From positions 9,533 through 73,532 of IMG/VR virus record IMGVR_UViG_3300031787_000075: a stretch of 64,000 nt of DNA; one strand, given 5' to 3'. The translations under genes were made by a program, and so were the position numbers. This document shows, piece by piece, positions 33,255-64,000 of this stretch (its first letter is position 1; every line of letters starts with the position of its first letter). Source of the stretch: a virus. The notes under the pieces were generated by a model. That model had not been told where the DNA came from. It ran no database searches and worked only from the letters and a program-made list of their open reading frames with translations.

Positions 33255-33995
33255 TTATAGTTTTTGCAAGAATTTATGTAGAGCCATGTTCCAACGTGCA
33301 TCTTCTAAGGCATTATGCTCTTTAGTTATTTTTGGGTAGTTGGGCAAATCTTTAATTGATTTTATAGTCTTTCCTGCTTCCGACAAAATTCTAAGTTGGT
33401 AATCTGTTCTTCTCAATGAACTATAATAGTTTTCAATTTCGTCAAATTTTTGCTTCAAGTCAATACAATACTTTGGAAACCCTTTTGGCAGGTCCAGCAT
33501 CTTGCCAAACAGCCAACAAAAAACCACCCAATCATAGTCTGCATAGTAGCCGTAAAACTTAGGTTCGCTCTTGTAAGTATCATTGTACTTATCTTCTGTA
33601 GATTGATTATAAACAAATTCTTTAATTTCAATTGCTATTTCAGCATTGGTTTTGCCAAAGCTATTTAGCAGCATTTTCATACTTCCGTAGTTAAACTCTA
33701 CTCTATTTCTTGCATCTCCATGAACCAACTCTGTGTAAATTTTGACAAGGACATTCTCTCTTATCCAATACACTTTCTTCATGCCTCCGTTGTCAATGTC
33801 TGGTTTAAGGTCATACCTATTCCAAGCCTCACGCAAGTTAAAATCTTTTGATATAGCATAATACGCTCTGCCATCTTCTGCCACAATACCTATACTAATT
33901 AGGTCAATGGTAGGTTTGGTTTTTCCAAATGGTATTCCCAGAATACGTTTGGTTTGTGTTCCTTCTAGGAACTCTGTGTCTATATAGTAATTCAT
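33255..33995 (-). CDS. DEDDh 3'-5' exoribonuclease (Rv2179c-like)
   Basis: 'YYIDTEF', 'LISIGIVAEDGRAYYA', 'YDWVVFCWLFG.M..LP.GFP', 'HNALEDARW'. Confidence 0.85.
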   Translation of the reverse strand: MNYYIDTEFLEGTQTKRILGIPFGKTKPTIDLISIGIVAEDGRAYYAISKDFNLREAWNRYDLKPDIDNGGMKKVYWIRENVLVKIYTELVHGDARNRVEFNYGSMKMLLNSFGKTNAEIAIEIKEFVYNQSTEDKYNDTYKSEPKFYGYYADYDWVVFCWLFGKMLDLPKGFPKYCIDLKQKFDEIENYYSSLRRTDYQLRILSEAGKTIKSIKDLPNYPKITKEHNALEDARWNMALHKFLQKL

Positions 33996-47694: not shown

Positions 47695-50600
47695 CTACAT
47701 TTTTTTAGGTAATTTTCCATAAATAGATTTGATTTTATCTTTTTGGGCAGGAATTAAAGCTTTATTGGTCATTAACTTATCTAAGAAATCTTTGGCCTGA
47801 ACGTACTGCATAGGAAGGTTTCTGTTAAATGCGTACAACAATTCAAACCATTGTAATTTCTGCTCTGGTGTTATTGACTCTTTTTCGCTTAAATCATCAA
47901 CTATGTAAGATAATTCCTTAAGGTTTTCGCCAAACCTGAATTGCTTATAAGAATCCTCGAATTGCTTTGCCTCTACTGGAAACTCTTTCTTAAACTTTTT
48001 CATGTTTTCAGGCTTTACATAATCTGCAGGAGTTATGTGGTCGTCATTGAACATCTTTTCTATTTCTAGCATGTTAACGCCTTTTGACTCTAGCATAGGA
48101 TTAAAGCTGTTTTTGTGTTTTGTAACGGCTTCTAATTGCTTCCAAAACAAAGCGTATTCTCTACCTCTTTGCCATGTATTTTTAGTGGCAAAACGATATG
48201 GATTTTCAAGTAGCTTTCTTTCGCTATCGCTATTTAGTTCTAATGCAAATCTAGCGTTTGCACCAAACTGCGCTTTTAAGAAATAGTCTGTCTTCATAGG
48301 GCTTACACCAAACTTTTCTCCCATCCACTTAGCAAACTCGCTTGTGTTCTTGTTTTGTTGGTATTGACTCTCCATATTAGCGTACTCTCCTGTTACAATA
48401 GGCATTAATGTAGGGTAAGATTTAACACTTAATAAAGTATTAATTGTTGGAGAAACAGCTGTTGGAATCATTTGCAAAGCATTTGCTCCTGCCATATCGC
48501 TATCTCCAGTCAAAATACCTTCCAAAATACCTTCCGCTTGTTTAACTCCTCCTGGCAAACCCTCTCTTATTGGTGAAAAATATTGGCTTGGAGTGTATTT
48601 GAATGGTGCTTTTTTGTTTTTCTCATAAGCATAAGAAAAGGCAGCCATTTGAGAAATACCTGTGATCGCTGTAATAGATTCAGGAACCCTTACCCTAATC
48701 CATTTCAATTCAGGTCCACCCCATATAAATACATACTTGGCAAACTCTTCTGATGGTTTATTGGCCATTGCAGCAATATCATCATCATCTCCTCCTCCAT
48801 TAAACACCTGCATAATACTATACGCACTTATAAATGCTAATGTGGCAGCTAATCCTCCTCCTCGTTTTGGATTTTTCTTTATCGACTCTATGTTTTTTAG
48901 TAGCGCCTGCAATGATGCGTTCCAATAAACGTGTGACCTATAAGCTACCCTTCCAGCTCTACCAAACATTAAACCTCTTCTGTAAAAAGGGGCAGAAACA
49001 TTGGCTGCCATAAATAATGCTGTACTATCGTCATAACCTAAGTCTATTGCTCTTTTAAATTCAGCAAACCTAGTCATAATCTCTGTGGCATTAACAGGAG
49101 CGGCCAAAACATCAATGGCGGTATCAAAAACTTGTTTAGCCTTGGTTCCAATTGTTTTCTTAGGAGAAACTCTGTTAATTATTTCACCTACGGTTTCTGT
49201 TCTGTCAAAATTAAACGCCTTAGAAGCATTGAATCTATCCCCTGCTAGTGCTAAATACTTTTTAAGCAACTCTTCACCTTGCGGGGTGTCTATCTTCATT
49301 CCCAACTCGTTTAAAACAGTTCTCCATTGCGTGAATACTTGTATAGCATCTCCGGCACCAATGAAATCTCTTTTTCCTGTAGTTGAGTTTATAAAGGCAG
49401 ATATTTGGTCAATGGTAAAGTTTCTTAACGCAAATGTCGGGTTGGCGGCTGTGGTCATTAATCCAAACACATTAGCACCTGCAAACAATATCTTTTCCCA
49501 TGCACCATTCATGTCTTCCGGGCTTAATGTTGTGGCTAAAGCCTTAATCCAATCCGCTGCCTCGTAATACTGCTTGCTTCCATTTATGTAAAAACTAACA
49601 TACCCTCTGTTCTCTAAGTGGCCAAATGTAGGAACGCCACCAATCATAACAGCGGTCTTAGGTACTCTAATAAAATCTTGGTTTAGCTGTCTTTTACTTA
49701 TGCCCATGTCCTCACCATGCTCGTTAACGAATTGGGCAAATTTCATCCAAAACATATTGTTGTAACCCTTCATGATGGTTTTAGGAATATGTAAAATCAT
49801 TGCCTCTAACGGACCAATGAAAGACTTTCCTGAACTACCAGTTCTCTTTTTAAACTGTGTTAGGTTTCCTCCTTGTGAGTTTCCTCCCCCTGTCATTAAA
49901 TCGTCATGGATATATCTTTGGAAGGAAGCATAGTCTTTATTTTTAGACCATTCCTTATAAGACTCTTCACTTATTAAGCCGGTATTCCTAGCGACCTCTA
50001 ACAAATGCTCATTTATCTTATCAAAAATGGCAGTAGCATCTTTAAACTCTTTCTCAAAGGCAGCTATGCCTGCATTTACCTGCCTAATATCAAAATTATC
50101 GTTGTTTACTATGGTTCTGTACTCAACAAATTTATCAAGAAGCCTTTTAGCTATTTGGGCTTGAACAGGAGTCATTGCATCAGGGTCCGGAAAGTTTGCC
50201 ATATACATATCGTAATCGTTCTTAGCATCAACCATTCTATTATAATCCCCTTTTGCCCTCCTGTTGATTAGGTATTGATTAAATACATCTCTAACAAACT
50301 CTATATCCCTATCATTCTTTTTTGCGATCCTACCTAATTCATCCAAAATACTATTAACACTAAGTTTTTCATATTTGTAGGTTCCATTTTTTTGAATAAT
50401 GGCCATCATTTGCTTTCCATTTAACCATGCCTGGGCAATAGGTCCGCTCTGCATATTGGTAAAATAAGCAATCTCTAGGCTTTCATCACTCAATGCGGTA
50501 TCAGCTAATTCATCCAATGTCCTAAATGCGCTGCCGGTGTCGAATTGCAATGCCATATACATTTTAAATCCTACATCAGACACGTTTACGTTTTTCCATG

Positions 50601-53600
50601 AACTTTCAGCGCCAAAACCTTTTTTAACCTCTTGTTGCGCATCTGCCATCCTTAATCCTGTACTGAATATTGGTGACAACTGTTTTACACCATCCATTAT
50701 GTTAGCCATGGCATCATACAGCTTGTTCACCAATGGATGATTGTATGTTGAACCACTAACAAATACTTTATTGAATATCTCTGAATAGTCTTGCGAAATC
50801 TTAATAGGGTCCGCTAAATACTCATTCATAAACACCGCTAGACCTTCTATTACTTGTAAGCTTGTTGGGTGTGTTGGCTTGGCATTAGGATAAAATTCTT
50901 GGTAAATCTGTTTTAGTTCATTTATTAAATCCTTATCCCCTGAATCAATAATGTTTTTGGCCATACCATTTGTTTGGTCGATAAAGTGCATGCCCTCATG
51001 TATGGCAGTAAATATCTCCATCAACGATCTGGTGCCAATATATTTCTGCCTAATAAAATACGCTCCCAATGCTCTAGGAACCTTTTTCTCTCTTACAGGA
51101 ACTCCAATATCATTTAAAGCCTTTTTAACTCTGCCAGACAAACTAAAATAATCAGCTGTCAAAGGACCCATTCCTCTATCATTGTAAATGTATTGAGGAA
51201 CACCATTTCTATTTACGGCGATTTGAACATTTGGTTTAGCATTTCCTACCTCCGATATGAATTGTTGGGCAGTTTTTAGGTCTTGGTAAGCCATTGACTT
51301 TAACGAGGCAAATATTTGTTTCTGCTCTTCATTGTCGGTTGCCGCTGCCAACGCATCCATATTCTGTAAAAACTCTCTTAGCGTTTTTGCAGGCATTAAC
51401 TTGGCAGCGCTAACGGCATCAACAAAACCTTTACTTGCGCCTTGTCCAAAAACAGCTAATGCCAGGCTATCTGTCGTAACGGCTTTGTACTTTGTCTTAA
51501 CCCTTTCGTAGGCGTATCTAATCCATTCCTCTGAACCCTGTCCTAACCTTACCGCTAAATCTTTGAAATTAGTAATGCCTTGTTTTACATATAAGGCAAC
51601 TACTTTTATGAACTTACCTGCCATAACTAAGCCGGTAGGGTCGTTTTGATTTGGCCTAATGCCTAAACTCTTGTTTTTATCCCATTCCGATTTTAAATCG
51701 TCTATGGCGGCTTCTAGTTTTGTTTTTGAAACTTCATATTGTGGGCTCTCAACTTCATTAAAGATTCTTTGGCGTTCTGCCTCAAAGAATTTATCTCTGA
51801 TTGAGTTAAGCGACTTGAATTTATAAATTCTTGCTGCTTGTCCTTTAGTAAGTTCTTCTGTGTTTCTTGCGATTCCATAATCTTGGACAAATGTATTTAA
51901 TTTTTCTTTACCAAACTTATCATTCAACTTATTTAATAAATCTTTTGAAATAATTTGGTTTGGACCAAACCTGCCTTGCGCCAAATTTGTTGACAAAACA
52001 ACCTTTCCTCCGTTTTCCTCTACAAAAATTTCTAAAGCCTTCAAAGTTGCTCCGCTAGTGCTTACATCATCAATAAGAATGTATTCTTGACCTGGATTTA
52101 TTTTACCATCGAAATATACAGGTCTTAAAAGTCTTGCAGCTGGGGAAGCGCCTGTATGATAAGACCTATTTGATTGAACAATATCTGTTTCTATCTCATT
52201 TCCGTATATTTCATGTATTTTTTGAGCATAAGCCAAAGGCAGCATATTTCTACCTGTCCTTTCATTTGATATTACAGGAATTAACTTAGCGTTAGGGTAA
52301 TTAGATATGCTAGACAATCTTTCACTCTTTACTATCTTATTTACAATCTCGTAAGCTGAAATAATATCACCTGATTTAGCTTTTTCGTAATCTTTTGTTT
52401 TGACTAAATTAGAAATTGAGGTATGATTAATGTTTTCAACCTGCATTAAAGGCAATCCCCTATCAGAAAGTGCATTGTAAAGATTATCGGTTATTGGAAT
52501 AGACATTCCGGAGGTGTATCCTTTTGCGTAATCCATGTCAACATCTATTGGAGAAACCCTTACGTTTTTGTCGTACTTTCTAGCAACCTTCTCAAACGCC
52601 TTGCCTACATCGCCTATTTCACCTTCTTTTACTGAACCGTAATACTTTTTCATAGGTTCAGAACCAATAGTATGCTCGTCAACCTTTATTTCTTTTAAAC
52701 CTGTGCTATACTCTCTGCCTTCTCCATTTTTTATTTTATTGGCTATTTCAGAACCTAATAAATCTTTAACCCTATCAAAAGAAACATTTGTTTCAAAAAA
52801 AACTTCTTTGTTATTGTAAGTACCTGTTATAAAATAATTGTCGTAGGTCTTAAAGTAGTTATACTGAATAGTATCAACAACATTGGATATTCTAAATCTT
52901 TGAGAAACCTGCTCCCCAGTATTCCATGCCACAGCATCATATCCGTTTTCAACCGCGTATTTTAATGCTCTCTTAGCGGCAAGGTCTGTATAAGTTTTTT
53001 TGAATGGGGCAATTGGAGTTTTGCCTTCTTTAATTCTGTATGATTGGTCTGTAAATTCAGGGTTGTTAATCGCCCAATCCTCGGCCTCTTCTGATGAATA
53101 GAAAATAGGAGCTCCTTTTATCTTATCTCCATTCATTTTAGTGACAAAGAATTGACCTTTATAGCCATAATCTCTTCCAGCTTCATGCCTTTGGCTTTGT
53201 ATTTCGTCAATAACCATTACTTTTCTGCCATCCTCTGTAACGGAATCTCCAAACCTTAGCCACACCAAGGCTCTGCCAGTTGTTACTGTTCCAAAATGTA
53301 TATCATCATTTAGATTATATAATTCAACCTCTTTAGAATATTTTGCATTACTTGAAAATTCTCTTCCGCTTGCGTATATAACAATTTCTTTTTTATTAGA
53401 TAAATCAGGTGAGGTGTATTGTAATCTAGTTGAGTTTATTTGGTTTTCGTACTCTTCAAAATATGATTCCCTTATTTCGTCTTGAACAGCTTCTTTAATT
53501 GTATCTACTGAATTAAGAAACTTATTGGCATAATCAAGCATATCCATAGCGGTTGCAAACGCATCTGGATTTTGAATTAAATTTGAGGTTATAAGTTCTT

Positions 53601-56600
53601 GTTCTAAAACCTTTAAGGAGTCTTCGTTAGGGTTTTGATTATATTTTGTTACAGCATCTCTAACATCTTCAATATAAACCACGTCTTCTTCTGTAGCATC
53701 CCATCCTGAACCAAAAACATAATAAGAAGAGTCTTCACCTCTGCTTAAGTTATTTTCACTTAAAAACAGTCTAGCTTCGGCTATTGTGGCTCCATCTAAA
53801 CTGCTTTTCTTTTCTGTTGACAGTATCTTTTCAGCAATCTCAACCTTGTTTTCTTTCAAAAACTTTAATGCAGCATCCTTAGTGATTTTATTGTACTTGT
53901 TCTCTTCAATGTAATCCTCGAAGCCGGTCCAATAAACCTCTTCTCTGTCCAATAACCCTTCGTTTGCTCTTGCCTCAATCCAATCCTTCCATTGCGCTCC
54001 GGTCATGGTGTTGCCTTTTTGTTCAATAGCTGAATTTAGTCTGCTGTACCAGTCAACAACAATTGTTTTGGCAGTTTTATCCTTGGCAATGTCTTGAATA
54101 GCGGCTTTGTCAAACATGGTTTTAACAGCGGCTTGTGTAAAGGCATCTAAATCCATTTCAGACAATTGTTTGGCAGTAACCTTGTCTAGGCCAACTATAT
54201 CTTTAATTGCTTGCCAAAACTCTTTTAGCCACTCCGTAAAGCCTTTCTTTTCATTGGCAGCCATTACCACTCCTTTGTCTGCAATGGCTCTTACTAGGGC
54301 TTCTTCTTGCTTCTGTTTGTACGTTAATTTAGCATAGGCAGGATTGTTCTCCACCTCTTCTAAATACTTGCTACCCACAACCAATTCCAAACCTCTTCTT
54401 AAAACATCGGGTCTGTGTTCTGAAAGCAATTTAGTAAAGGCATGGCCAAACTCATGTATTGGCGTTTCAGGTCTTGCTAGTCTTGGGTCGATATAAACCC
54501 TGTCCTTATAAAAAGCACCTAAGACTTCGCCTGTGCTAACTTTTTCAAACGAAATTATATCCTCTATGCTTATAGCGTTTTCGTTAAATACTACATAATT
54601 GAATCCTCTTGCGTTGCCACTTGTTGCTCCTCTTGCTATGCTTTCAGCAGGGTATTTAATGCCATCAATGCCGTTTTCTAAAAGAAATAATGATGCTTGC
54701 TTTCCCCACTCTACTTTATATTCGTCTCCGAAAATCTTCACCAACTCACTATACAGCTCTTTGCCTTTTATTGCAGTTGAAACTCTACCATCAAACCCTT
54801 TTTCTTCAATAGCTTTATTTATTTTAATTACATCAGTAAGGCTCACTTCTTTATCCCATTCCAACCAAGTGTATTCGCTTGGGGTTTTGCCTTTGTGTAA
54901 TGATACCTTGTATAGATTTCTATTTTTATTACCAACTAAAAGCTTGTTAAGGTCACTTTGAGTTGACGCAACTAAAAAATCAATAGCTTTTTGCACAGTA
55001 ACTGAATTGTGGATGCCATCATTAATTTTACTTGTTAAATTTTTTATTAACACATCTTTGTCAAGGCTCATTTCTTCTTTTATGGCCACATCAGCAAATA
55101 CTGGTATATTCTTATTTAGAACTCCTTGAATTTGTATTTTTCTAGCATAATCTTTAGCTATGCTTTCTAAATCAGTAAAATATAATCCCCATCCAAACGC
55201 TTGTGCGCCTTCGCCTGTACCTATCTTAGATAATTCAAATTTGTTAAATTTAAAAGGTGAACCATGATAAACTTCTACTTGGGCCAAGTAATCGCCTGCA
55301 ATCATCCACCTAAAACTAGGCTCAACAACCACTTCGTCAACTACACCCTCAAAACTATCTGTTAAAGCCTTGGTTAAATTATCTCTGAACTCAACCTCTG
55401 ACTCTGTTAATGGAAAGTCAACTGTTTCTTTCTGCAGCTTTGGGCCTCCACTAATCCATTCCAAAAATTCTTTTGCTGATGCCTCTGTCTTGAATTGGAA
55501 ACCAGGTATTGCGCCTTGCGCTTTGTATGAAGAGTAATTTCCTCCCAATTCTTTGGCTTTAGCATTGGCAGGGGCAAAATCATCTATTCTAACATTCATT
55601 TTAACCACCCAGTTATCTCTCTTCTCCTTGGCATGGTAGTTTTTAATAAGTTCAAACTGATTTTTGTTTTGGCCCTGACTAGGTGATGAACCCTGTTTTG
55701 GCTCCATATCAATTGTTGGTGGAACACCCATGTCCTCTATTTCATCGAACAATTCTTTTATAGTAACCAAATCTTTTAGCATAGTGTTGGGAGCGCCTAG
55801 CGTGCTTCCTCCCATTGCTGCCACCTTATTTCTTAAATCTTCATCGCTTATCTTGTCTATGATAACTATTTGAGTGTTTACATTGGTTCCTGCCTTTTCA
55901 AATGTTACAGGAGGCAATTTTATTACAGCCCTTAAAACAGCGTTTTCAGGTGCGTTTTCTCCATACAAAAAGTTGTTTAACCTTTCATCCATCTTGCCTT
56001 GTGGAACCAAAGCCACAACCCTTCCACCATCTCTTAGGTGCTGAAATGCTTTTGCCAAGTGATCCATTGCTGTTTTTCCGGCATGGCCAAATGGTGGGTT
56101 CATTACAATCCTATCGTACTTATTAACTAATGCTAGGTCTTCAAACCTATCGCCAAAGTGATTTGAGTTTTTATGAGAAAGCATGGCAGCTTGTGAACGT
56201 AAATCTGCACTTGGCTCTATGATATCTAAACCAGTTAATTCAGGCACATATCTAGCTATACTTCCTGAACCAGCACTTGGCTCTAAAACCTCTTGTCCTG
56301 GCTTAATATCTGCCCACTCAACAATTTTAAAACCTAATGGCTCTGGAGTAGGATAGTAGTCAACCCCTTCCGGTTCTCTGTTTCTTGACCTTTTTTGTCT
56401 TAAATGATAGTGTTGAATAGCTTTTTGGTAGGCACTTAGCTGATTTAATTGCTTGTCATAGGTTTTGCCTCCTACACCATAATCTCCCGAATCTAGTTTT
56501 GAATAAAACTCTTCTACTGGAATAGCTTCTAGGTATCCTGTTCTAAGAGTTTCCTCCATTCCTCTAGCATCATTTCCTAGTGCGAAATTTTCTGTGGTTC

Positions 56601-59600
56601 CAGATCTAGGCGCTGACTTGTCTGACCAAATAAACCTTTCAAAATTAGTGTGTATTGCAGGATACAAAAATACAGCATTACTCCTGTTTCCAACCCTGAA
56701 AATTCTACCCTCCGGCTGAATAGCATCGTTACTCATAATAGGAATACCTAGGTTTATCTCAACCCTTTGAGCGTTTCCTAATTGGTCATGTAAGTCAATA
56801 CCGGCTTTACCCGCTTCCTTTTGAACTATAATGATGTTTTTATTAGCGCTTTCGTTAAACTCATTTATAATTGATAACCTTTTCGACTTGCTTACGCTTC
56901 CGTTAAATACCAATGATTGAGAAGGGAAATTGCTAGTGATGGTGGCAATAGGGTTTACCAATCCTGTCATATCCAAATTATAAAACTCTGGATACTTTTG
57001 ATTAAACTCCTTTATCTTGGTTTGAATCTGTTGAATCCTTGCCATTGCGCCTTCATGTGAACCAGCTGCTTTGGCAATTTCTTCTGCAGTAAAATGAAAT
57101 GGATGGCTTGGTGCACCTTCATTGTAGTTATGGAATATTACAATTTTCTTGTTTTGGCTTAATAGCTTTTCAATTAAAGGTATTGACATTTTTGCCTTGT
57201 AGGCTTCAAGCAATCTCATGGTGTATAAGAAATTGAACTTTTTAAGCACTAAATCCCTTAGCTTAAATTCATCGCTTTCCAATACTTGAATACCCTTATC
57301 AATCATTCTGCCTATCCCTTGCTCTCCTTCCGGGTCCAAAAACAATATAAAGGTTCTGCTATAATCATATTCAGAATCTAACATTCTAGTGAATAGAACG
57401 CCTTCTGCTTTCAGTTTCTCATGAAACTCTCTTTCCAAGAAGCCTTGGTCAACTCCTCTGCCTCCCGACTTATCCTTTACTTTTCCGTAATCATTTACTC
57501 TCCAGGCAAAGTTTTGGGCCATGAATTGGGTTTGACTTCTCTGCCCATTCTTGTCTTTAGGATAATCAAATAAAAACCCTTCTGCATAATCTAAGGCAGG
57601 GCTAGAAGCAAATGGAGTAGCTGACATGAAAACAACCTTTGTCATGCCCTGCATCCTTTCAGATTCGGCTTCTATTAACTTTTCATAAGCCTTTCTTTCA
57701 GCATTTCTTAGTTCAACCAACTCGTTTAGTCTTGCTCTTTTTTGTGCGACAGTTCTAAGGAAAGAAACAATATCTTCATTTCTGCCAGTTTCCATTTCCT
57801 GTTCCAAAGACTGTATTTCTTCATTTAGTCTTTGTAATTCAGGGCTACCTATTCTTGATTCCGCGATTTTTCTTGTTGTGCTATAATGTTTGGCAGCTAT
57901 CCTTAATGCGTTTACGGCATTGGTACTTTTGCCTTCTTGGCTACTCATGATTTGGTCTGATTCATCGACAACAATCATATCCCAATCCTGATTCTGAACA
58001 TTTTCATTATCCCTGAAATTGGCATGAGTAGTAACCACTAAATTATAACCATCCCCTACATCTTTTGTGTCTTGTAGGTTATAGGCATCCATATTAAACC
58101 ATGATGCCTCATTTACAAACTTATTATTAATAGATTGCTTTGGAGTTAAAACTAAAACCCTTCTTTCTTTTCCGAAATCCTCTCTAACCTCTACCTTTTT
58201 ATCTTCCGATTTTAAGGTGTCGGCAAAATCATTGGCTTCTTTTTCGGATTGAAACCTTCTTACCGGCTTGTTATTTACATAAACCTGAAACCCATCCTGC
58301 CTGCCTTCTTTGATAAACCTTTTTACAATAGCCAAGGCAGTTGAGGTTTTTCCTGTACCAGTTCCATTGGTAAATAAAATACCTTTTTTGCCTTGTGTAA
58401 ACAATGCGTTTTCTGCCCTAAAAACATCTTCCTTTTGAGAGTCTAAGGCAAATGGAACCGTAAAGTTTATGTTCTCTTTATCGGAAACAATAACAGGCAC
58501 AGGTTCGGCAGCTAATTGAAGCGCCTTTTTCTCGTCAAATGTTAGTTTTGGCGAAGGCGTGTTTCCATCGCTTTCCTTGCCTTTTCCTGCTCCTCTTCCG
58601 TCATTCCCGGATTGTCCAGTAGGAGTATTTCCATTGCCTGTTCCACTGTTTCCACCACCGGAATTATTTCCCTGTCCTCCGGATTTACCGCTAGGTGTTC
58701 CTGAACCGCCTCCTGCTCCAGAAGAAGCGCCAGTACCTCCTGAACCGCTTCCTGGAGTACCGGATCCTGAATTGTTGTTAGGCTGATTGCCTTGTTGGTT
58801 TCCACTAGGTCCTGAACCTCCTTGGTCTTTAGTGGGGTCGTCTGTGCCACCCTCTTCATTATCTGCTGTATCATCTTGTTCGGTATTTAATTCTGTGATA
58901 AAATTCTCTACATAAGACCTTACCTGCGCTCTATTGCTCATTTTGTCGGCAATATCATCATCGACACTAATCATTTCAGCGCTGTAAACTTTAACCAAGG
59001 CAGGCAATTTATCGTACAAAACTGTGTCACCAGCTTTGGCTCTTACAACCTCTGCTATCCTTGGAAAATCATAAATGCCTTTTTCAAAAAACTGATTTAT
59101 AAATCTTTTTCCGGCAGCCATTTGCTCCGGAGTTAATTCTTTCTTTAAGAAATCGCTAACGCTGCCTTCAAATAGCTTTTGTTGCGACTCCTCTCCAATT
59201 CTTACATTCTTTTCTTGGTTCCTTATAATATCCAATTGCTTTAAAGCCATTTCGTATCTAGCACGTTTTGGCCTTAATATTTGGTCTAAGGTATTTCCTT
59301 CTACTCCCTCTTTTCTAGCCCTAGATTTTGTATCGTCTAAATCTTTTGAGGCTTCCTTTAATTCCTTTTTAGCAGCAGCAAGAGTTTTTTCATAATCCTT
59401 TCTTATGTCCGACTTTCCGGATTCAGGTCCAGATCCAAATAAATCTGCCTCTCCTAACATATCCAAATCATCCATATTGAAATCATCTAGGTTTAAGTTG
59501 TCGATACTTGGACCTGATTTTTTCTTTGGTTTTGGAGTTGATTTCTTAGCGGAAGGCGCTGTTTTTTCTACAAAAAACTTGTCTTCTATGTTTTTGAAAA

Positions 59601-62600
59601 ATTCTTTTGCTGACAATGTTATGGTTTCAGTATGCTCTGAACCATCTTTAGGTTCTGACATTTCTACGCTAACGAAATTGGTGTTGCCCTCTCTTGGAGT
59701 TGCTATAATCCTATTGTAATATTCGCTTTCAAAAACCTTTCCTTTTGTAGCTTCTAGTATTTCTGTTTCAGGTGCTAATTCAAATGACTGCCATTTTTCT
59801 GCAGGAAGCTTTTCGCTGTAAACCACATATCCGAACCTAGAACCATCGGTTTGTTCAAATCTTAAAAAAGTATCTTCTTTAGGGTATGAACCAATTGTGA
59901 ATGGCCTGTTTCTTAATTCGTATCTATACTCTTTTGATTCTGGAGTTGTTTTTGACTTGTATTCTGATGGCATTATAAAATCAGAATCTTTTAACTTAAC
60001 TGTATTCTCGTATAAGTCTTTGCCTTCTTGGATAGCTTTTTTAATTAATAAATCATCAATATTGTTTGGAAGATTTCCATCATCAATAATACCTGCATAA
60101 CTCATTCCAGACCTATCAGGCTGACCATTTATAATTGTTTGAGGATTACTCATTCTTAATCCAACAACTCTATATTTTTTACCATTTCTTTCTATGATTT
60201 TAATGAAAGACTTGGTATTGTTTTGCCCATCTGTAGTTCTTGGGTCAAACACTTCTTTATATTGAGCAGAATCTTTGTTTGTCCTTTCTTTTGTTCTATT
60301 ACTTACCGCAAAACCATCAAATAAACCAAATACAAATATTTTACTATTAATAGCTTCGTTTACTTCTTGCTTTTCTTCTTCGCCTTTTCCATCACCATCT
60401 TTTTCAACTTTATCGCCAGTTTCTCCCTTGGAGTCAACTCCTTGCTGTTTTTTTCTGTTTTCATCTATTAATTGTTTGATTTTTTTAGCTAATGCAGGTT
60501 CTTTTATTGAGGTTCCTTCTTTTGAAGGATTGAATTTATCTGTGAAATAATGAACAAAACCTCCGAATTGACTTAGGTATTCTCCTTTAAGCCATTCATC
60601 AACCATTTTTTCAACCTCTTCTAAATTGCCTTCTTGTTCCATCCATAACAACATCTCCTCCACCTCTTCGTCACTAAACTCTGAAACAAATTCGTCTATT
60701 TGATTTAGTAAATCAGGGTTTTCAAGACTCTGTCTGTCAATATTGTTTTGTAATTCAATTTGCTTTATCCTTTCATTGATATATGAAGTTGCACCTCCAG
60801 GATTTTCAATAATGAAATCGGTAATTTTCTTAATAACATCTTTTTCGTCTTTTCCGTAAAATACTGATTGTTCATCATCTATCATGAAGCTTACAAATTC
60901 GTCTAAGGATTGGGCACCTGGCCTGCTAGTAAACCAATTTAAAGCATAAGGATTTCCTCTTTTTTTGCCTGTTTCAAAAAGATTTCTATCGGAAAGGCTT
61001 TTAATGCTTTCCATTTTAAATCTTGAACCCTCTAGTTCTTGTGCTAAAAAGTCTGTTTCGTTTTGGGCTTCAAATCTAGGTTTCTTTTTTGGTTTACCCT
61101 GTTTGGCCTTTCTTTCTTCATCCCATGCCTCTTCCTCTGCTTCTTGGACCTCTTGTAGGTAAATCTCGTAAGCATCTTCAACCATCTTCTTTTCATCAGG
61201 TGGCAATGCGTTAAATTCGTCTAGGGTTAATCCTCTTTCCTCTAAAAACTTATCCCTAAAACCTGACATTGCTTTTTGATAAGCTTCATCATTTTCTTGG
61301 CCCAAACCTGTTAGTTCTTGTTTTTGGGCTTCGGGTTCAGGAATTTCAACCTCCATATCCTTAAGCTTGTCCTCAAACCAAACAGAATTTGACTTTACTA
61401 TTTCTAGTTCATTTGGTTCTAATGGCAAACCCATTATGATTTTGTCGGCAATGTCGTTTAACTCTTGTTCAGGATCACCCTCAACCCCTTCGCTGCCTTC
61501 TTCATCTGCTGTCAAAGGCATTGCACCGGCTCCATCACTTGGGCTAGGTGGTGTGCTAGGTGGTGTAACAGGTGGTTCACCTCCCTCTGAAACAGGTGTT
61601 TCAGTTTCTTGTGTTGGCTCGGCAGGAACGCTATCTTTATTTGATTCATCCCTTTTTAATTTATCCAAAAGCATTTGGTCCCTTGTCTTAACAAATGGGG
61701 CAATTGCTTTATATGCGGCATCTCTAACAGCTGTTTGGTTCTCATCGTTCAACGCATCGTAACTTGCTCCAAACATTGACTTGGATTTTGCTCTAACCTC
61801 ATCCCAATACATTTTTGAGTTCATGTTTTGAAGCACAGCAAGTCTTTGCTCTGGAGTCAAATTGGTTTTACCTAATTCTGTGTTCAGCCAATTAGAAGCC
61901 TCTACTTTACCTTTAGGGGAAAATACTTTTGAAGCTATATCTAATGGAATCTCAATTTCAGCTATCTCTCCATCGCCTTTTCTGTAATTAACCTTGTAAG
62001 TCCTGTTTTCTCCCATGTATTTGGCAGATAAACCAACTAATTGCATAGGAACCTGAATAAGCCCTGTTACAGCGGCAGTTTCTTTAAAAAACTCCGGAGT
62101 AAACGAGGTTCCAAATTGCCTATTATACATAAAATCTTCTGCGGCTGCTGCTGCATACTCTTCTATGTTCTCACCTATAATACCATTTAAACCTGTGGCA
62201 TCCTTTAGTTCTTTCAATGTCTTTTGGAAAGAATTAGGATTTAAACCTCCATTCTTTCTTAACATCGTGGCAATTATCATTCTCTTGGCCCACTCGTTAT
62301 TTCTAGCCAATGTCTTTACAAGCTGTTCCGAAACCTCTCCACCTAATGCTCCTCCAATTCTTTCACTTAAGTTCTCTTTAAGGTTGTCTAGGAAAGCATA
62401 AGCAAAAGCTTCAACTGGGTCCATTCCTTTGCCTGTTTTTTGGCCCAACAAGTCGTATTGAGAGCGGTCCAATATAGCCACCATCTCGTCTATTCCTACG
62501 ACATCATTTCCTGCTGTTTTCTGTTTATCGGCATCGACATCCATCCCAAAGGCAAATTTGACCTCCGGGTTCATGTGTTCTACAAATGACTTACCCCACT

Positions 62601-64000
62601 TTACTGGGTCTGCGGCTGTTCTTGCCATTTCTCCCACAATTACAGATATGGGTTGAGCAACTCCGTATTTGAAAGCTGCTTTTTCAGCATACTTTTTACC
62701 AGCTTTTAAAATAAGCTCTTTTACGGCTGTTCTTGCAGGTGCGGCAGCAAAGTTTCCTGCTGCCATATCTACCATGTAAGGAACACTAATGGTTGTAATC
62801 TCTCCTGCAGTAAATCCAAAAGTAGGTTTTGCGTCTTGCTGATAGGCTTGGTCCATACCTAAACTATGTAACAGCAATTTTTCTCCATCTGTTAATGGAA
62901 CACCGTTTTTAACCTTTTTATTTATATCGTAAAGCTTTAGGTTGTTAGATAGTTCTAATGCAGTTTTAACATAAGGTATTGGCAAATTTTTGCCGTATTT
63001 AAAGCCGTAACCTATACCTTCTGACAGGGTTCCACCACCAAGTTCAGGTCTAGCTAGTGTGGCTCTGATTTGGTCTTCTGCCTGCTTTAAAGTTCCTAAA
63101 TCTTCATTATACTTTTCATTGGTAACGACAGGAACAGCACCAAAACCGCCTATATTCATAGACAATCCAGGTGTTTCAGGACCTTTATTCTTTTCTAATT
63201 CGGCTTTTTCTGCCTCTATTTCTTTTAATGCGTCTTGGGCCCAATCTCTTACTCCGTAACTTGTAACATCACCTTTTGGTGTTCTACTTGCAGCCATTAC
63301 AAACTCGGAGAAATATTGCTCTCTGTATTTTTCTATGAAATCTTTGTTGTAACCCTTTTTCTCTAACATGGCTCTTGTCGAATCCCATGTAGCGGCAATA
63401 ATCCTTTTCTTATCGTCAAAGTTCATTTGTTTGAACCTATCTGAATTGGCTATGCTATTAATAGTGTATATGGCACGATTGGACAATACCCTGTCTTTTA
63501 AAACAGCTTGTTGATACCTTCTTTCGGCTTCTGAATTAAAGTAGGTTTGTAATTTAGGTTTAACAACCGACTCAAATTCTTGCTCCCATAAACCGCTAAC
63601 AGCATCGTTCAACTCTTTGTTTAAAGATTCATTCAAACCTTTTAATGCTGCTTCTGCGTCTTGTTTTGATAACTGGCCTTGTTGATACGCGGCAGCTAGT
63701 TCTTTGTTTTTTTGCTCGTACTTAGATACTAATTCGGATTTAACCTTGTTTATAGTGGCAGAAGCCTTATCGGATTTAACCCAATTTTCATACTCTTCTT
63801 TGGCTTTTTGCTGTTGCTCTTCCTCTGTTATTTTAGCTGCCTCTACATAATCTAGCTGCCTGTCTGCTTTGTTCTTTATAACCTCTTTCAGCTTTGGAAC
63901 AGCATTGGCCATGGCAACATTGTCTGCTACTGCAGATAGTATTAATTGCGCCTTTTGATCTGGATTAGGTTCCTTGCCTTGAAATTCAGGTTCAGTATAT
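47695..64000 (-). CDS. Giant DarB-like polyvalent (putative ejected virion) protein, >5400 aa, 5' end outside the window
   Basis: Frame stays open from 63912 to the window edge. Domains: DarA_C-like (~59770-59930), SF2 helicase (GTGTGKT ~58350, DESD, MSATP, GIDLHD, QPEGRIFR), N6-MTase (LEPSAGSG, NPPF ~56100), ART-like (YHGSP..GWGLYFT), HEFGH and HEGMH zincin motifs, PRTase (IDDVSTSGATL ~52060), LPD38-like C-terminus. Confidence 0.9.
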   Translation of the reverse strand, partial: YTEPEFQGKEPNPDQKAQLILSAVADNVAMANAVPKLKEVIKNKADRQLDYVEAAKITEEEQQQKAKEEYENWVKSDKASATINKVKSELVSKYEQKNKELAAAYQQGQLSKQDAEAALKGLNESLNKELNDAVSGLWEQEFESVVKPKLQTYFNSEAERRYQQAVLKDRVLSNRAIYTINSIANSDRFKQMNFDDKKRIIAATWDSTRAMLEKKGYNKDFIEKYREQYFSEFVMAASRTPKGDVTSYGVRDWAQDALKEIEAEKAELEKNKGPETPGLSMNIGGFGAVPVVTNEKYNEDLGTLKQAEDQIRATLARPELGGGTLSEGIGYGFKYGKNLPIPYVKTALELSNNLKLYDINKKVKNGVPLTDGEKLLLHSLGMDQAYQQDAKPTFGFTAGEITTISVPYMVDMAAGNFAAAPARTAVKELILKAGKKYAEKAAFKYGVAQPISVIVGEMARTAADPVKWGKSFVEHMNPEVKFAFGMDVDADKQKTAGNDVVGIDEMVAILDRSQYDLLGQKTGKGMDPVEAFAYAFLDNLKENLSERIGGALGGEVSEQLVKTLARNNEWAKRMIIATMLRKNGGLNPNSFQKTLKELKDATGLNGIIGENIEEYAAAAAEDFMYNRQFGTSFTPEFFKETAAVTGLIQVPMQLVGLSAKYMGENRTYKVNYRKGDGEIAEIEIPLDIASKVFSPKGKVEASNWLNTELGKTNLTPEQRLAVLQNMNSKMYWDEVRAKSKSMFGASYDALNDENQTAVRDAAYKAIAPFVKTRDQMLLDKLKRDESNKDSVPAEPTQETETPVSEGGEPPVTPPSTPPSPSDGAGAMPLTADEEGSEGVEGDPEQELNDIADKIIMGLPLEPNELEIVKSNSVWFEDKLKDMEVEIPEPEAQKQELTGLGQENDEAYQKAMSGFRDKFLEERGLTLDEFNALPPDEKKMVEDAYEIYLQEVQEAEEEAWDEERKAKQGKPKKKPRFEAQNETDFLAQELEGSRFKMESIKSLSDRNLFETGKKRGNPYALNWFTSRPGAQSLDEFVSFMIDDEQSVFYGKDEKDVIKKITDFIIENPGGATSYINERIKQIELQNNIDRQSLENPDLLNQIDEFVSEFSDEEVEEMLLWMEQEGNLEEVEKMVDEWLKGEYLSQFGGFVHYFTDKFNPSKEGTSIKEPALAKKIKQLIDENRKKQQGVDSKGETGDKVEKDGDGKGEEEKQEVNEAINSKIFVFGLFDGFAVSNRTKERTNKDSAQYKEVFDPRTTDGQNNTKSFIKIIERNGKKYRVVGLRMSNPQTIINGQPDRSGMSYAGIIDDGNLPNNIDDLLIKKAIQEGKDLYENTVKLKDSDFIMPSEYKSKTTPESKEYRYELRNRPFTIGSYPKEDTFLRFEQTDGSRFGYVVYSEKLPAEKWQSFELAPETEILEATKGKVFESEYYNRIIATPREGNTNFVSVEMSEPKDGSEHTETITLSAKEFFKNIEDKFFVEKTAPSAKKSTPKPKKKSGPSIDNLNLDDFNMDDLDMLGEADLFGSGPESGKSDIRKDYEKTLAAAKKELKEASKDLDDTKSRARKEGVEGNTLDQILRPKRARYEMALKQLDIIRNQEKNVRIGEESQQKLFEGSVSDFLKKELTPEQMAAGKRFINQFFEKGIYDFPRIAEVVRAKAGDTVLYDKLPALVKVYSAEMISVDDDIADKMSNRAQVRSYVENFITELNTEQDDTADNEEGGTDDPTKDQGGSGPSGNQQGNQPNNNSGSGTPGSGSGGTGASSGAGGGSGTPSGKSGGQGNNSGGGNSGTGNGNTPTGQSGNDGRGAGKGKESDGNTPSPKLTFDEKKALQLAAEPVPVIVSDKENINFTVPFALDSQKEDVFRAENALFTQGKKGILFTNGTGTGKTSTALAIVKRFIKEGRQDGFQVYVNNKPVRRFQSEKEANDFADTLKSEDKKVEVREDFGKERRVLVLTPKQSINNKFVNEASWFNMDAYNLQDTKDVGDGYNLVVTTHANFRDNENVQNQDWDMIVVDESDQIMSSQEGKSTNAVNALRIAAKHYSTTRKIAESRIGSPELQRLNEEIQSLEQEMETGRNEDIVSFLRTVAQKRARLNELVELRNAERKAYEKLIEAESERMQGMTKVVFMSATPFASSPALDYAEGFLFDYPKDKNGQRSQTQFMAQNFAWRVNDYGKVKDKSGGRGVDQGFLEREFHEKLKAEGVLFTRMLDSEYDYSRTFILFLDPEGEQGIGRMIDKGIQVLESDEFKLRDLVLKKFNFLYTMRLLEAYKAKMSIPLIEKLLSQNKKIVIFHNYNEGAPSHPFHFTAEEIAKAAGSHEGAMARIQQIQTKIKEFNQKYPEFYNLDMTGLVNPIATITSNFPSQSLVFNGSVSKSKRLSIINEFNESANKNIIIVQKEAGKAGIDLHDQLGNAQRVEINLGIPIMSNDAIQPEGRIFRVGNRSNAVFLYPAIHTNFERFIWSDKSAPRSGTTENFALGNDARGMEETLRTGYLEAIPVEEFYSKLDSGDYGVGGKTYDKQLNQLSAYQKAIQHYHLRQKRSRNREPEGVDYYPTPEPLGFKIVEWADIKPGQEVLEPSAGSGSIARYVPELTGLDIIEPSADLRSQAAMLSHKNSNHFGDRFEDLALVNKYDRIVMNPPFGHAGKTAMDHLAKAFQHLRDGGRVVALVPQGKMDERLNNFLYGENAPENAVLRAVIKLPPVTFEKAGTNVNTQIVIIDKISDEDLRNKVAAMGGSTLGAPNTMLKDLVTIKELFDEIEDMGVPPTIDMEPKQGSSPSQGQNKNQFELIKNYHAKEKRDNWVVKMNVRIDDFAPANAKAKELGGNYSSYKAQGAIPGFQFKTEASAKEFLEWISGGPKLQKETVDFPLTESEVEFRDNLTKALTDSFEGVVDEVVVEPSFRWMIAGDYLAQVEVYHGSPFKFNKFELSKIGTGEGAQAFGWGLYFTDLESIAKDYARKIQIQGVLNKNIPVFADVAIKEEMSLDKDVLIKNLTSKINDGIHNSVTVQKAIDFLVASTQSDLNKLLVGNKNRNLYKVSLHKGKTPSEYTWLEWDKEVSLTDVIKINKAIEEKGFDGRVSTAIKGKELYSELVKIFGDEYKVEWGKQASLFLLENGIDGIKYPAESIARGATSGNARGFNYVVFNENAISIEDIISFEKVSTGEVLGAFYKDRVYIDPRLARPETPIHEFGHAFTKLLSEHRPDVLRRGLELVVGSKYLEEVENNPAYAKLTYKQKQEEALVRAIADKGVVMAANEKKGFTEWLKEFWQAIKDIVGLDKVTAKQLSEMDLDAFTQAAVKTMFDKAAIQDIAKDKTAKTIVVDWYSRLNSAIEQKGNTMTGAQWKDWIEARANEGLLDREEVYWTGFEDYIEENKYNKITKDAALKFLKENKVEIAEKILSTEKKSSLDGATIAEARLFLSENNLSRGEDSSYYVFGSGWDATEEDVVYIEDVRDAVTKYNQNPNEDSLKVLEQELITSNLIQNPDAFATAMDMLDYANKFLNSVDTIKEAVQDEIRESYFEEYENQINSTRLQYTSPDLSNKKEIVIYASGREFSSNAKYSKEVELYNLNDDIHFGTVTTGRALVWLRFGDSVTEDGRKVMVIDEIQSQRHEAGRDYGYKGQFFVTKMNGDKIKGAPIFYSSEEAEDWAINNPEFTDQSYRIKEGKTPIAPFKKTYTDLAAKRALKYAVENGYDAVAWNTGEQVSQRFRISNVVDTIQYNYFKTYDNYFITGTYNNKEVFFETNVSFDRVKDLLGSEIANKIKNGEGREYSTGLKEIKVDEHTIGSEPMKKYYGSVKEGEIGDVGKAFEKVARKYDKNVRVSPIDVDMDYAKGYTSGMSIPITDNLYNALSDRGLPLMQVENINHTSISNLVKTKDYEKAKSGDIISAYEIVNKIVKSERLSSISNYPNAKLIPVISNERTGRNMLPLAYAQKIHEIYGNEIETDIVQSNRSYHTGASPAARLLRPVYFDGKINPGQEYILIDDVSTSGATLKALEIFVEENGGKVVLSTNLAQGRFGPNQIISKDLLNKLNDKFGKEKLNTFVQDYGIARNTEELTKGQAARIYKFKSLNSIRDKFFEAERQRIFNEVESPQYEVSKTKLEAAIDDLKSEWDKNKSLGIRPNQNDPTGLVMAGKFIKVVALYVKQGITNFKDLAVRLGQGSEEWIRYAYERVKTKYKAVTTDSLALAVFGQGASKGFVDAVSAAKLMPAKTLREFLQNMDALAAATDNEEQKQIFASLKSMAYQDLKTAQQFISEVGNAKPNVQIAVNRNGVPQYIYNDRGMGPLTADYFSLSGRVKKALNDIGVPVREKKVPRALGAYFIRQKYIGTRSLMEIFTAIHEGMHFIDQTNGMAKNIIDSGDKDLINELKQIYQEFYPNAKPTHPTSLQVIEGLAVFMNEYLADPIKISQDYSEIFNKVFVSGSTYNHPLVNKLYDAMANIMDGVKQLSPIFSTGLRMADAQQEVKKGFGAESSWKNVNVSDVGFKMYMALQFDTGSAFRTLDELADTALSDESLEIAYFTNMQSGPIAQAWLNGKQMMAIIQKNGTYKYEKLSVNSILDELGRIAKKNDRDIEFVRDVFNQYLINRRAKGDYNRMVDAKNDYDMYMANFPDPDAMTPVQAQIAKRLLDKFVEYRTIVNNDNFDIRQVNAGIAAFEKEFKDATAIFDKINEHLLEVARNTGLISEESYKEWSKNKDYASFQRYIHDDLMTGGGNSQGGNLTQFKKRTGSSGKSFIGPLEAMILHIPKTIMKGYNNMFWMKFAQFVNEHGEDMGISKRQLNQDFIRVPKTAVMIGGVPTFGHLENRGYVSFYINGSKQYYEAADWIKALATTLSPEDMNGAWEKILFAGANVFGLMTTAANPTFALRNFTIDQISAFINSTTGKRDFIGAGDAIQVFTQWRTVLNELGMKIDTPQGEELLKKYLALAGDRFNASKAFNFDRTETVGEIINRVSPKKTIGTKAKQVFDTAIDVLAAPVNATEIMTRFAEFKRAIDLGYDDSTALFMAANVSAPFYRRGLMFGRAGRVAYRSHVYWNASLQALLKNIESIKKNPKRGGGLAATLAFISAYSIMQVFNGGGDDDDIAAMANKPSEEFAKYVFIWGGPELKWIRVRVPESITAITGISQMAAFSYAYEKNKKAPFKYTPSQYFSPIREGLPGGVKQAEGILEGILTGDSDMAGANALQMIPTAVSPTINTLLSVKSYPTLMPIVTGEYANMESQYQQNKNTSEFAKWMGEKFGVSPMKTDYFLKAQFGANARFALELNSDSERKLLENPYRFATKNTWQRGREYALFWKQLEAVTKHKNSFNPMLESKGVNMLEIEKMFNDDHITPADYVKPENMKKFKKEFPVEAKQFEDSYKQFRFGENLKELSYIVDDLSEKESITPEQKLQWFELLYAFNRNLPMQYVQAKDFLDKLMTNKALIPAQKDKIKSIYGKLPKKM
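51714..51878 (-). CDS. Candidate overprinted 54-aa ORF nested in the giant gene (+1 frame)
   Basis: MESQETQKNLLKDKQQEFINSSRLTQSEINSLRQNAKESLMKLRAHNMKFQKQN*; TACATTTG -7 element at 51888-51895, 9 nt upstream of the ATG. Confidence 0.55.
   Translation of the reverse strand: MESQETQKNLLKDKQQEFINSSRLTQSEINSLRQNAKESLMKLRAHNMKFQKQN
58542..58874 (-). CDS. Candidate overprinted 110-aa ORF nested in the giant gene (+1 frame)
   Basis: Present in the ORF track; amphipathic, acidic, helical sequence exactly spanning the Gly/Ser/Asn linker before the helicase. Confidence 0.5.
   Translation of the reverse strand: MIQQIMKRVAQTTPLKTKEVQDLVETNKAISLTTIQDPVLQEAVQEVLALLLEQEAVQEHLAVNPEDREIIPVVETVEQAMEILLLDNPGMTEEEQEKARKAMETRLRQN
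60360..60464 (-). CDS. Candidate overprinted 34-aa ORF nested in the giant gene (+1 frame)
   Basis: MKTEKNSKELTPREKLAIKLKKMVMEKAKKKSKK*, preceded by an A-rich leader. Confidence 0.35.
   Translation of the reverse strand: MKTEKNSKELTPREKLAIKLKKMVMEKAKKKSKK

Follow-up and report, generated by a model that had tools for sequence, protein, structure and literature searches.

The stretch of DNA analysed here (the window) is 64,000 nucleotides long and covers positions 9,533 to 73,532 of the IMG/VR virus record IMGVR_UViG_3300031787_000075. It carries a giant gene for a polyvalent, DarB-like protein, and within this gene, between a DarA_C-like domain and a helicase, the encoded protein passes through a low-complexity linker. 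The DNA of the linker is also open in the +1 frame, where it holds an ATG-initiated open reading frame (ORF) nested entirely within the giant gene (Table 1). A first-pass annotation, made from the letters of the window, had suggested that the linker may be the shadow of a real protein encoded by this nested ORF, perhaps a partner, chaperone or inhibitor of the adjacent helicase-methylase. We find that homologous ORFs lie in the same frame and the same place in most of the related giant genes that we collected, and that substitutions in them follow the codons of the nested frame; from these comparisons we judge, with a probability of roughly 85%, that the nested ORF of the window is a genuine protein-coding gene lying wholly inside the giant gene in its +1 frame.

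Table 1. Features of the giant gene and of the ORF nested in it (window coordinates; aa, residues of the giant protein)
Feature	Position	Strand	Description
Putative nested +1-frame gene	58542..58874	minus	110 codons plus TAA stop, ATG start; product P0001
Nested ATG start	58872..58874	minus	coincides in the alignment with the family's conserved N-terminal Met
Main-frame low-complexity linker	58546..58887	minus	giant-protein residues 1676-1789; same DNA read in the other frame
Giant polyvalent DarB-like host gene	47695..63912	minus	5405 aa counted from the first ATG
DarA_C-like domain, upstream of the linker	59767..59934	minus	aa 1327-1382; Pfam PF18789, E 7.7e-09, 36.4 bits (cut-off 27)
Helicase core	56689..58437	minus	ResIII/DEAD aa 1826-1989, Helicase_C aa 2332-2408
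Putative methyltransferase segment, weak match	56011..56127	minus	aa 2596-2634; PF05175 MTS, E 9.4e-04, 19.3 bits (below the cut-off of 23)

In the main frame the linker is, as had been described, nearly pure hydrophilic sequence: its 114 residues include 36 Gly, 16 Ser, 13 Asn, 11 Thr, 8 Asp, 8 Pro and 6 Gln among others, and not one Phe, Leu, Ile, Met or Val. The nested ORF with the translation originally quoted does lie at the bounds of this linker, offset from the giant gene by 5038 nucleotides (1 mod 3, hence the +1 frame, in which position 2 of the nested codons falls on the wobble position of the giant gene), and the ResIII match of the helicase begins about 35 residues past its stop. 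Its product, P0001, has a net charge of -10 and a pI of 4.5; it matches no Pfam family at E≤0.01, and its best PHROG is phrog_21082 (E 0.0097), whose function is unknown.

A stop codon in the +1 frame needs a T at main-frame codon position 2, that is, a hydrophobic residue in the main protein, and the open +1 frame, counted from stop to stop, is for this reason exactly as long (114 codons) as the hydrophobic-free run of the main protein (114 residues). When the linker was recoded synonymously 5000 times, with codons drawn from the giant gene's own usage, in none of the 5000 did the open +1 frame fall short of 114 codons, and 73% of them contained an ATG-initiated ORF of at least 110 codons. 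Thus an intact ORF in the window says nothing about function, and the caution given with the original proposal, that hydrophilic linkers are naturally free of +1 stops, is exact for this sequence. The hydrophobic fraction, the helix propensity and the Gly plus Pro content of the +1 product all fall within the same null, and its acidity lies slightly above it (one-sided P 0.026, with eight features tested). The main-frame codon usage of the linker is ordinary (z -0.7, with every per-residue P above 0.1). The first-pass annotation had also placed ORFs at 51878 and 60464 in the same relative frame as the nested ORF; that they are in this frame is correct, and a connection between them and the ORF at 58542 finds no support. 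The +1 ORF near 51878 (51716..51896, minus strand) has 60 codons from stop to stop, the one near 60464 (minus strand) is outside the eight longest +1 ORFs of the giant gene, and the lengths of +1 ORFs in this gene form a continuum (60, 58, 58, 51, 51 and so on) that takes in the 51878 ORF.

Relatives of P0001 provide the evidence that the window's own ORF cannot. A phmmer search with P0001 against 1.84 billion representative proteins returned only two matches, both small and both matched over almost their whole length: P0123 (116 aa, E 7e-6, 45% identity to P0001) and P0124 (123 aa, E 4e-4), which are related to each other over their full lengths (pairwise E 9e-10). Since P0123 and P0124 contain Trp, Tyr and Phe, they are not readings of a purely hydrophilic linker; neither has a Pfam or PHROGs match above cut-off. 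A scan of JGI metagenomes with the alignment of these three sequences identified four loci. At two of them (L010 and L011, GC 0.55-0.56) the matching sequence is a +1 ORF contained in a giant ORF right before the helicase, a third (L009) has the L010 sequence there, and the fourth (L008, GC 0.65) has the same layout, read from three frames around the match; at all four an ATG stands at the aligned start with AGGAG or GGGGGA preceding it. Six IMG/VR loci that were chosen for helicase similarity alone (GC 0.30) all have a 125-codon +1 ORF that matches the family at E of about 1e-19 and is preceded by GAGG. Several other searches returned no relative: the nested family searched with alignment A2 in IMG/VR and GTDB genome contigs, the window helicase against IMG/VR, alignment A1 against the JGI metagenomes, and blastn of 4 kb around the linker against GenBank phages; a word-indexed protein search with A2 recovered only P0123 and P0124 themselves, and the ESM Atlas gave no usable match for P0123.

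The prevalence of the nested ORF was measured in loci collected by helicase patterns and by tblastn to the window helicase only, of which the best 80 of 101 confirmed matches were used. A family match at E≤1e-3 is present in 67 of these 80 loci, exactly one per locus among 480 frame translations, and in all 67 it lies on the helicase strand, in the +1 frame and wholly within the main ORF, with an ATG at the aligned start. A motif resembling a Shine-Dalgarno (SD) sequence precedes the ATG in 42 of the 67 loci by a crude pattern; in the relatives it takes the form of AGGAG, GAGG or GGGGG located 5-9 nt upstream. The 67 nested ORFs are 119-162 codons long, specify 55 distinct proteins and come from loci of GC 0.29 to 0.69, and their stop is mostly within about 60 nt of the helicase match, with 14 of the 67 having it 380-540 nt upstream. 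A broader model that includes members from a weakly scoring group of loci of GC 0.38 also matches 8 of the 13 misses, which would bring the count to 75 of 80 by a procedure that is partly circular.

The family so defined consists of previously unannotated, mostly acidic, all-helical proteins of about 110-160 aa. Their median length is 125 aa and their median pI is 4.95 (49 of 62 are below 6, and values reach 9.9), they form 17 clusters at 40% identity, and Met occupies the start column in 42 of the 62 rows of the family alignment. The conserved positions include the Glu in 'PLL.E..AI', the Pro in 'LPEV' and an 'EA' pair, and as judged from the sequences none of them looks catalytic. P0001 is a divergent member of this new family of nested proteins and is itself predicted by modelling to be a small, acidic, all-helical protein. 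P0123, from an ENA contig of 69,787 bp, and P0124 were called as free-standing small proteins by their source pipelines, and their phages may have the small gene un-nested, possibly the ancestral layout.

Unlike the linker of the window, the overlapped main-frame segment of the relatives contains 2-22 hydrophobic residues, so that openness of the +1 frame is not automatic there. The exact probability of an open +1 frame given the main protein, calculated for 56 loci, has a median of 0.08, and 25 of these loci have values under 0.05 and 17 under 0.01; it falls to about 1e-5 at GC 0.30 and exceeds 0.5 in 10 GC-rich loci. Selection was examined more directly in 10 independent close pairs (74-99.5% identical, with gap-free alignments). 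Nucleotide differences within the overlap number 67, 53 and 148 at positions 1, 2 and 3 of the nested codons, whereas in the helicase just downstream they number 108, 62 and 408 at the corresponding main-frame positions; thus the substitutions take their periodicity from the nested codons within the overlap and from the main codons in the helicase. Differences in the overlap that are silent in just one frame number 145 for the nested frame and 41 for the main frame; a further 80 are silent in neither frame, and 2 in both. These patterns of sequence change indicate that the nested frame is under purifying selection in the family, and we regard it as nearly certain that the family is a real, selected one. 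The first-pass annotation had proposed a comparison of the two frames across related DarB-like genes, and its outcome favours the +1 frame on both counts, in the homologues found at the same place in 67 of the 80 helicase-selected loci and in the tendency of close pairs to vary mainly at the nested third position.

The window's own copy was then compared with a hidden Markov model (HMM) of the 55 unique members from helicase-selected loci, from which the window was excluded. P0001 scores 43.7 bits (E 2e-15, Z=1), and the +1 products of 2000 synonymous recodings of the linker average 1.2 bits against the same model and reach at most 16.1, so that none of them attains the score of P0001; the 'silent' positions of the giant gene's linker thus spell out a member of the family. 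AlphaFold2 (AF2) gives P0001 a mean confidence (pLDDT) of 52.4 from its single sequence and of 92.7 (pTM 0.83), with seven helices, from the 62-row family alignment A5; the window member is the only one that was modelled. The closest relative of the giant protein, P0004, is available as a protein sequence only, with 78% identity in the helicase. Without insertions or deletions, its linker equals that of the window in length and is 56% identical to it, and the flanks of the two proteins are 21-22% diverged. Among replacements between the two linkers that require a single nucleotide step, 22 lie at main-frame position 1 and 5 at position 2, where about half would be expected at each (P 0.002-0.004), and 16 of the 22 position-1 replacements are silent in the nested frame. 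In addition, the order of residues in the P0004 linker fits a family-like nested product far better than do shuffled orders (z 5.2, 0 of 2000; the window gives z 4.6). The occurrence of homologues in 67 of 80 loci, the nested-frame periodicity of their substitutions and the confidently predicted family fold together bear out the proposal that a real nested protein underlies the linker, and these sequence comparisons suggest that the copy in the window is very probably a functional member of the family.

Several observations weigh against a working gene in the window. There, the open frame, its bounds and the composition of its product are fully explained by the composition of the linker. The synonymous codon usage of the ORF is very atypical (z -13), with G at 45% of its third positions versus 16% gene-wide. 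P0001 is the most divergent member of the family, without the family Trp and with about 11 residues missing from its N-terminal part, and it is off the consensus at conserved columns, for example with Q for E at 79 and A for P at 49. Nested-frame changes forced by the P0004 linker are not depleted at conserved columns (7 of 25 top columns, 24 of 85 others; equal mean conservation of the changed columns, P 0.48). The ATG of P0001 is not preceded by an SD sequence; this absence is uninformative, since an SD-like 4-mer precedes only 10 of the 42 long ORFs of the window. On the side of the family, five of the 80 loci (L032, L035, L047, L052 and L054, GC 0.30-0.35) have no family match, so that the nested gene is not universal in this helicase clade, and the first 25 kb of phage P1, darB included, contains no nested homologue. 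At three of the five loci (L032, L035 and L054) the open +1 stretch upstream of the helicase is just 22-28 codons long, L052 has an 81-codon open stretch, and L047 has an unrelated +1 ORF of 125 codons. Finally, four distant loci aligned as nucleotides without regard to frame show identities of 0.47, 0.58 and 0.44 at nested positions 1, 2 and 3, whereas alignment of the same loci guided by the main protein gives a main-like 0.46, 0.50 and 0.40 at main positions. The two alignments disagree, and the periodicity of distant pairs is therefore dependent on the alignment while the close-pair result is unaffected; even in the main-guided alignment the main wobble position is more conserved in the overlap than in the flanks (0.29 and 0.26).

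These points bear differently on the three other ways in which the ORF might be explained. Our first conclusion was that it is purely an arithmetic by-product, the unavoidable open frame of a hydrophilic Gly/Ser linker, which codes for nothing; the equality of the 114-codon frame with the run lacking Phe, Leu, Ile, Met and Val, the behaviour of the 5000 recodings, a composition and helix propensity within the null, the low single-sequence pLDDT and the atypical codon usage are all what it predicts. It was dropped once the phmmer search and the later comparisons had found relatives, as it does not account for a score against an independent family model that 0 of 2000 recodings match, for homologues in the same frame and place at loci where openness is not automatic, for substitutions that track the periodicity of the nested frame, or for the rise in pLDDT with the family alignment. 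At the level of the family this explanation is refuted, and the third-position pattern of the close pairs argues against an artefact of main-frame homology; for the window we consider it exceedingly improbable. Alternatively, the nested gene might be real elsewhere and its function lost in the window phage and in P0004, its trace lasting because a main frame of Gly, Ser, Asn and Thr makes no +1 stops. The divergence of P0001, its lost Trp and N-terminal deletion, its departures from conserved columns, the undepleted forced changes in P0004, the missing SD sequence and the uninformative integrity of the ORF could all be read as marks of such a relic. However, the wobble positions still spell a family member, where decay would be expected of unselected sequence with flanks 21-22% diverged; the P0004 linker retains an order that fits the family and an excess of position-1 and nested-silent replacements; linker length is the same in both, without insertions or deletions; and the AF2 model is confident for P0001 itself. 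A relic is thus unlikely.

The third explanation accepts the nested frame and its purifying selection, with which it is compatible, and differs in how the frame would be reached: ribosomes would shift by +1 within the linker and end at the nested stop, yielding a truncated polyvalent protein that ends in a helical domain. The nested frame is indeed in the same messenger RNA (mRNA) and direction as the giant gene, and its relative frame is +1 in 67 of 67 loci. On the other hand, an ATG stands at the aligned N-terminus in all 67, many loci have an in-frame stop a few codons upstream of it, well-spaced SD-like motifs occur in the 42 loci mentioned above as well as in L008, L009, L011, L002 and Serratia phage Parlo, and the gene call for P0123 is of a separate protein of 116 aa; a conserved slippery site was not noticed, in analyses that included no search aimed at one. 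We regard such a frameshifted extension as very improbable, and favour a separate nested gene.

If the nested gene is real, the converse question arises of whether the linker is merely what the nested codons happen to spell in the main frame. In a reverse null the nested protein was held fixed and its codons were re-drawn in 5000 trials; the main frame remained open in none of them. Gly makes up 33% of the observed main-frame residues versus a mean of 10% in this null, and Arg, Cys, Trp, Tyr and His together make up 1% versus 21%. Thus the choices that the nested protein leaves free have gone towards a giant reading with no stops, with much Gly and with no hydrophobic residues. The main frame of the window is not a passive by-product, and both frames have been shaped: the nested frame bears specific sequence information, and the main frame bears a compositional requirement. 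The description of the linker as a 'shadow' consequently holds in so far as there is a nested protein to cast it, and fails in so far as it implies a purely passive main frame.

The family has been sequenced in cultured phages without being annotated there. Carriers include Serratia phage Parlo, Pseudomonas phage Skulduggery, Klebsiella phage vB_KpnP_ZX1, Ruegeria phage 45A6, Vibrio phage 1.232.O and Vibrio phage D274. The GenBank records of Parlo and 45A6 have the giant coding sequence (CDS) alone annotated over the match, and in Parlo the nested ORF has 129 codons, is in the +1 frame relative to the annotated CDS and has GAGG upstream. In the Skulduggery record, MF042361, the nested ORF occupies 33577-33963. 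In the literature searched, including the main texts of PMC5512222, PMC9144972 and the Parlo announcement PMC6606913, no gene lying inside a DarB-like or polyvalent gene is described. The text of PMC5512222 (Iyer et al. 2017), which describes polyvalent proteins, does not in its main part use the words 'overlapping', 'frameshift', 'linker' or 'low-complexity', and 'nested' there refers to a hairpin fold.

Out-of-frame embedded genes are already known in phages; what is new here is a widespread family hidden in the connector of giant phage proteins. The classic embedded case is Rz1 of lambda-like phages, a small +1-frame gene that lies wholly within the larger Rz gene on the same strand; Rz1 is a secreted lipoprotein of about 60 aa, the Rz and Rz1 products act together, and a single mRNA probably serves the translation of both. 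The nested ORF of the window and those of the 67 loci resemble Rz1 in being complete ORFs inside another gene, on the same strand and in its +1 frame, and the family resembles it in the purifying selection on the embedded frame that the close pairs reveal (67/53/148 by codon position, 145 versus 41 silent differences). For the lineage of the window the support for such selection is indirect, coming from the P0004 replacements and the order test, and the conserved-column test was negative. The nested family has no sequence relation to Rz1, its predicted product appears cytoplasmic and helical, and the host reading here forms a low-complexity connector within a protein exceeding 5000 aa. An embedded class of spanin is described for phage JC1 in PMC9144972. 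The polyvalent proteins of PMC5512222 are of the same kind as the window's host gene product, which has DarA_C, a helicase, a weak methylase match and ART-PolyVal; a second gene in the connector is not described in the main text there.

The arrangement can also be compared with overprinting in general and with phage P1. In some overprinted pairs of viral genes one frame encodes a structured protein and the other a disordered one. The nested family is similar in that one frame is conserved and folded and the other is fast-evolving, low-complexity and probably disordered; it differs in that the disordered frame belongs to a much larger host gene and in that the arrangement is kept across GC contents of 0.29-0.69. 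In P1, the small protein Ulx was reportedly found by Piya et al. (2017) to be required for the packaging of DarB. Ulx is encoded beside darB and annotated 'Ulx-like anti-restriction' in NC_005856, and like the nested protein it is a small protein genetically tied to a DarB-type helicase/methylase; by this analogy it is a possible functional counterpart, a helper of the giant protein. It differs in that ulx lies downstream of darB as a gene of its own and is not embedded, and Ulx shows no sequence similarity to the family (-1.8 bits against the family HMM).

Above their Pfam cut-offs the giant protein itself matches ResIII, DEAD, AAA_19, DarA_C and ART-PolyVal, the last located downstream of the linker, and slightly below them it matches Helicase_C and MTS. 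The helicase scores are 33.2 bits for PF04851 (cut-off 22.5), 27.9 for PF00270 (26) and, slightly under its cut-off, 22.3 for PF00271 (23.5), and the helicase was aligned with that of 52 relatives; PF05175 is present in the precomputed annotation of several homologues of the giant protein. This set of DarA_C, helicase, weak methyltransferase and ART-PolyVal matches marks the giant protein as polyvalent and DarB-like. It has 777 homologues of 2972-9459 aa, which bear LPD-type domains, and the giant proteins of cultured relatives are annotated 'DarB-like antirestriction protein'. The frame of the giant ORF is open as far as the end of the window, and its database copy, P0003, has 5655 aa, with an N-terminus that extends 250 residues beyond the window's giant ORF, which is open at the end of both window and record. 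The giant gene probably wraps round the end of the linear record through circular permutation.

Around the connector the order of modules appears fluid, in that two homologues that are 40-48% identical to the window in the helicase have 330-530 residues of other sequence between the pre-linker domain and the helicase (P0005, aa 1760-2085; P0006, aa 1658-2189). A more distant homologue, P0007, has a connector rich in Gly, Ser and Asn at the same site, with insertions and deletions and some hydrophobic residues. In the group of loci of GC 0.38 (L024-L049) where the helicase ORF starts from an ATG with GAGGG before it, only some 180 codons of that ORF precede the nested gene, so that the proteins are shorter and the nested gene lies close to their N-terminus. 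Sequencing runs provided some view of the locus in other samples; no RNA run holding the window was listed among them. Runs X2, X3 and X5, labelled as fungus metagenome and freshwater metagenome, gave contigs that do not differ from the window wherever they cover 57800..59600; the same phage sequence thus recurs across studies, and these contigs, which cover the linker, show no population variation in it. In the freshwater run X7 the contig of a slightly different strain tracks the window to 58344 and then continues with 108 letters unlike it. This point of divergence is about 200 nt short of the nested stop, the linker being outside the X7 cover, and it may reflect a strain-level rearrangement or replacement near the N-terminus of the helicase.

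Most likely, we infer, the nested protein is translated separately from its conserved internal ATG on the mRNA of the giant gene. SD motifs stand before this ATG in the relatives and not in the window phage, which seldom uses them. The main-frame reading supplies the giant protein with a fast-evolving, low-complexity connector, and in the lineage of the window the nested third positions have been set so that this connector is pure Gly, Ser, Asn and Thr. As to its origin, a small gene upstream of the helicase may have been overrun in a different frame as the helicase ORF lengthened or was joined to modules lying upstream, and may then have been kept because it was needed.

What the protein does is approached mainly through its position and through modelling. 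The nested gene lies before the helicase whatever N-terminal modules the giant protein has, and this fixed position, together with a weak complex prediction, is the ground for the tentative idea that its product may bind the helicase-methylase module, whether to help with assembly or packaging or to regulate it. When the nested protein was modelled with a 660-aa helicase segment, both as alignments, three runs scored 0.48, 0.50 and 0.57 (median 0.50) and the best control 0.01, which is classed as 'weak support'; the runs share at least 70% of their contacts, and the pLDDT of the partner is at least 78. In calibration, 58 out of 80 solved complexes and 2 out of 110 mismatched pairs passed this mark; only 7 of the 80 solved complexes passed with scores of 0.60 or less, as did both of the passing mismatches. 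Where nothing made the guess likely in advance, a pass of this weak class is false more often than true, which counts against leaning on it. Structure prediction of the +1 product, alone and with the helicase region, had been suggested in the first-pass annotation: the product is poorly predicted from its own sequence and confidently with its family, and its pairing with the helicase has weak support. Nor does fold comparison back any function, the best Foldseek matches having E 0.39 (TM 0.31) in the PDB and E 0.81 in BFVD, and the best wide VIA-align match being a designed protein at Z 5.4, which falls short of the background that the tool states for helical proteins. Since one fifth of the members are not acidic, mimicry of DNA is a less likely role. 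A fuller scheme, which on present evidence we rate as rather unlikely, would make the nested protein the dedicated helper of an injected giant protein (a chaperone, a packaging adaptor or an activity brake for the helicase-methylase) and a once free-standing gene across which the polyvalent modules were fused.

The giant DarB-like and polyvalent proteins are annotated as single genes in many phages, cultured and uncultured, the six carriers named above among them, and a conserved second gene within them alters the parts list of these systems; it is also a concrete candidate for a missing helper of the giant protein. More generally, what reads as a low-complexity 'linker' can be one face of a stretch that codes twice, and an alternative frame that is trivially explained in one genome may nonetheless be real, as could be shown here only by relatives with hydrophobic residues in their linkers. 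The idea is testable, in that carriers are in culture and stops can be placed in the nested frame silently for the giant gene. If the fuller scheme is true, the 'linker' would be an overprinted reading whose cost is paid by the silent sites of the helper gene, and low-complexity connectors in other giant proteins of mobile elements may hide more such genes.

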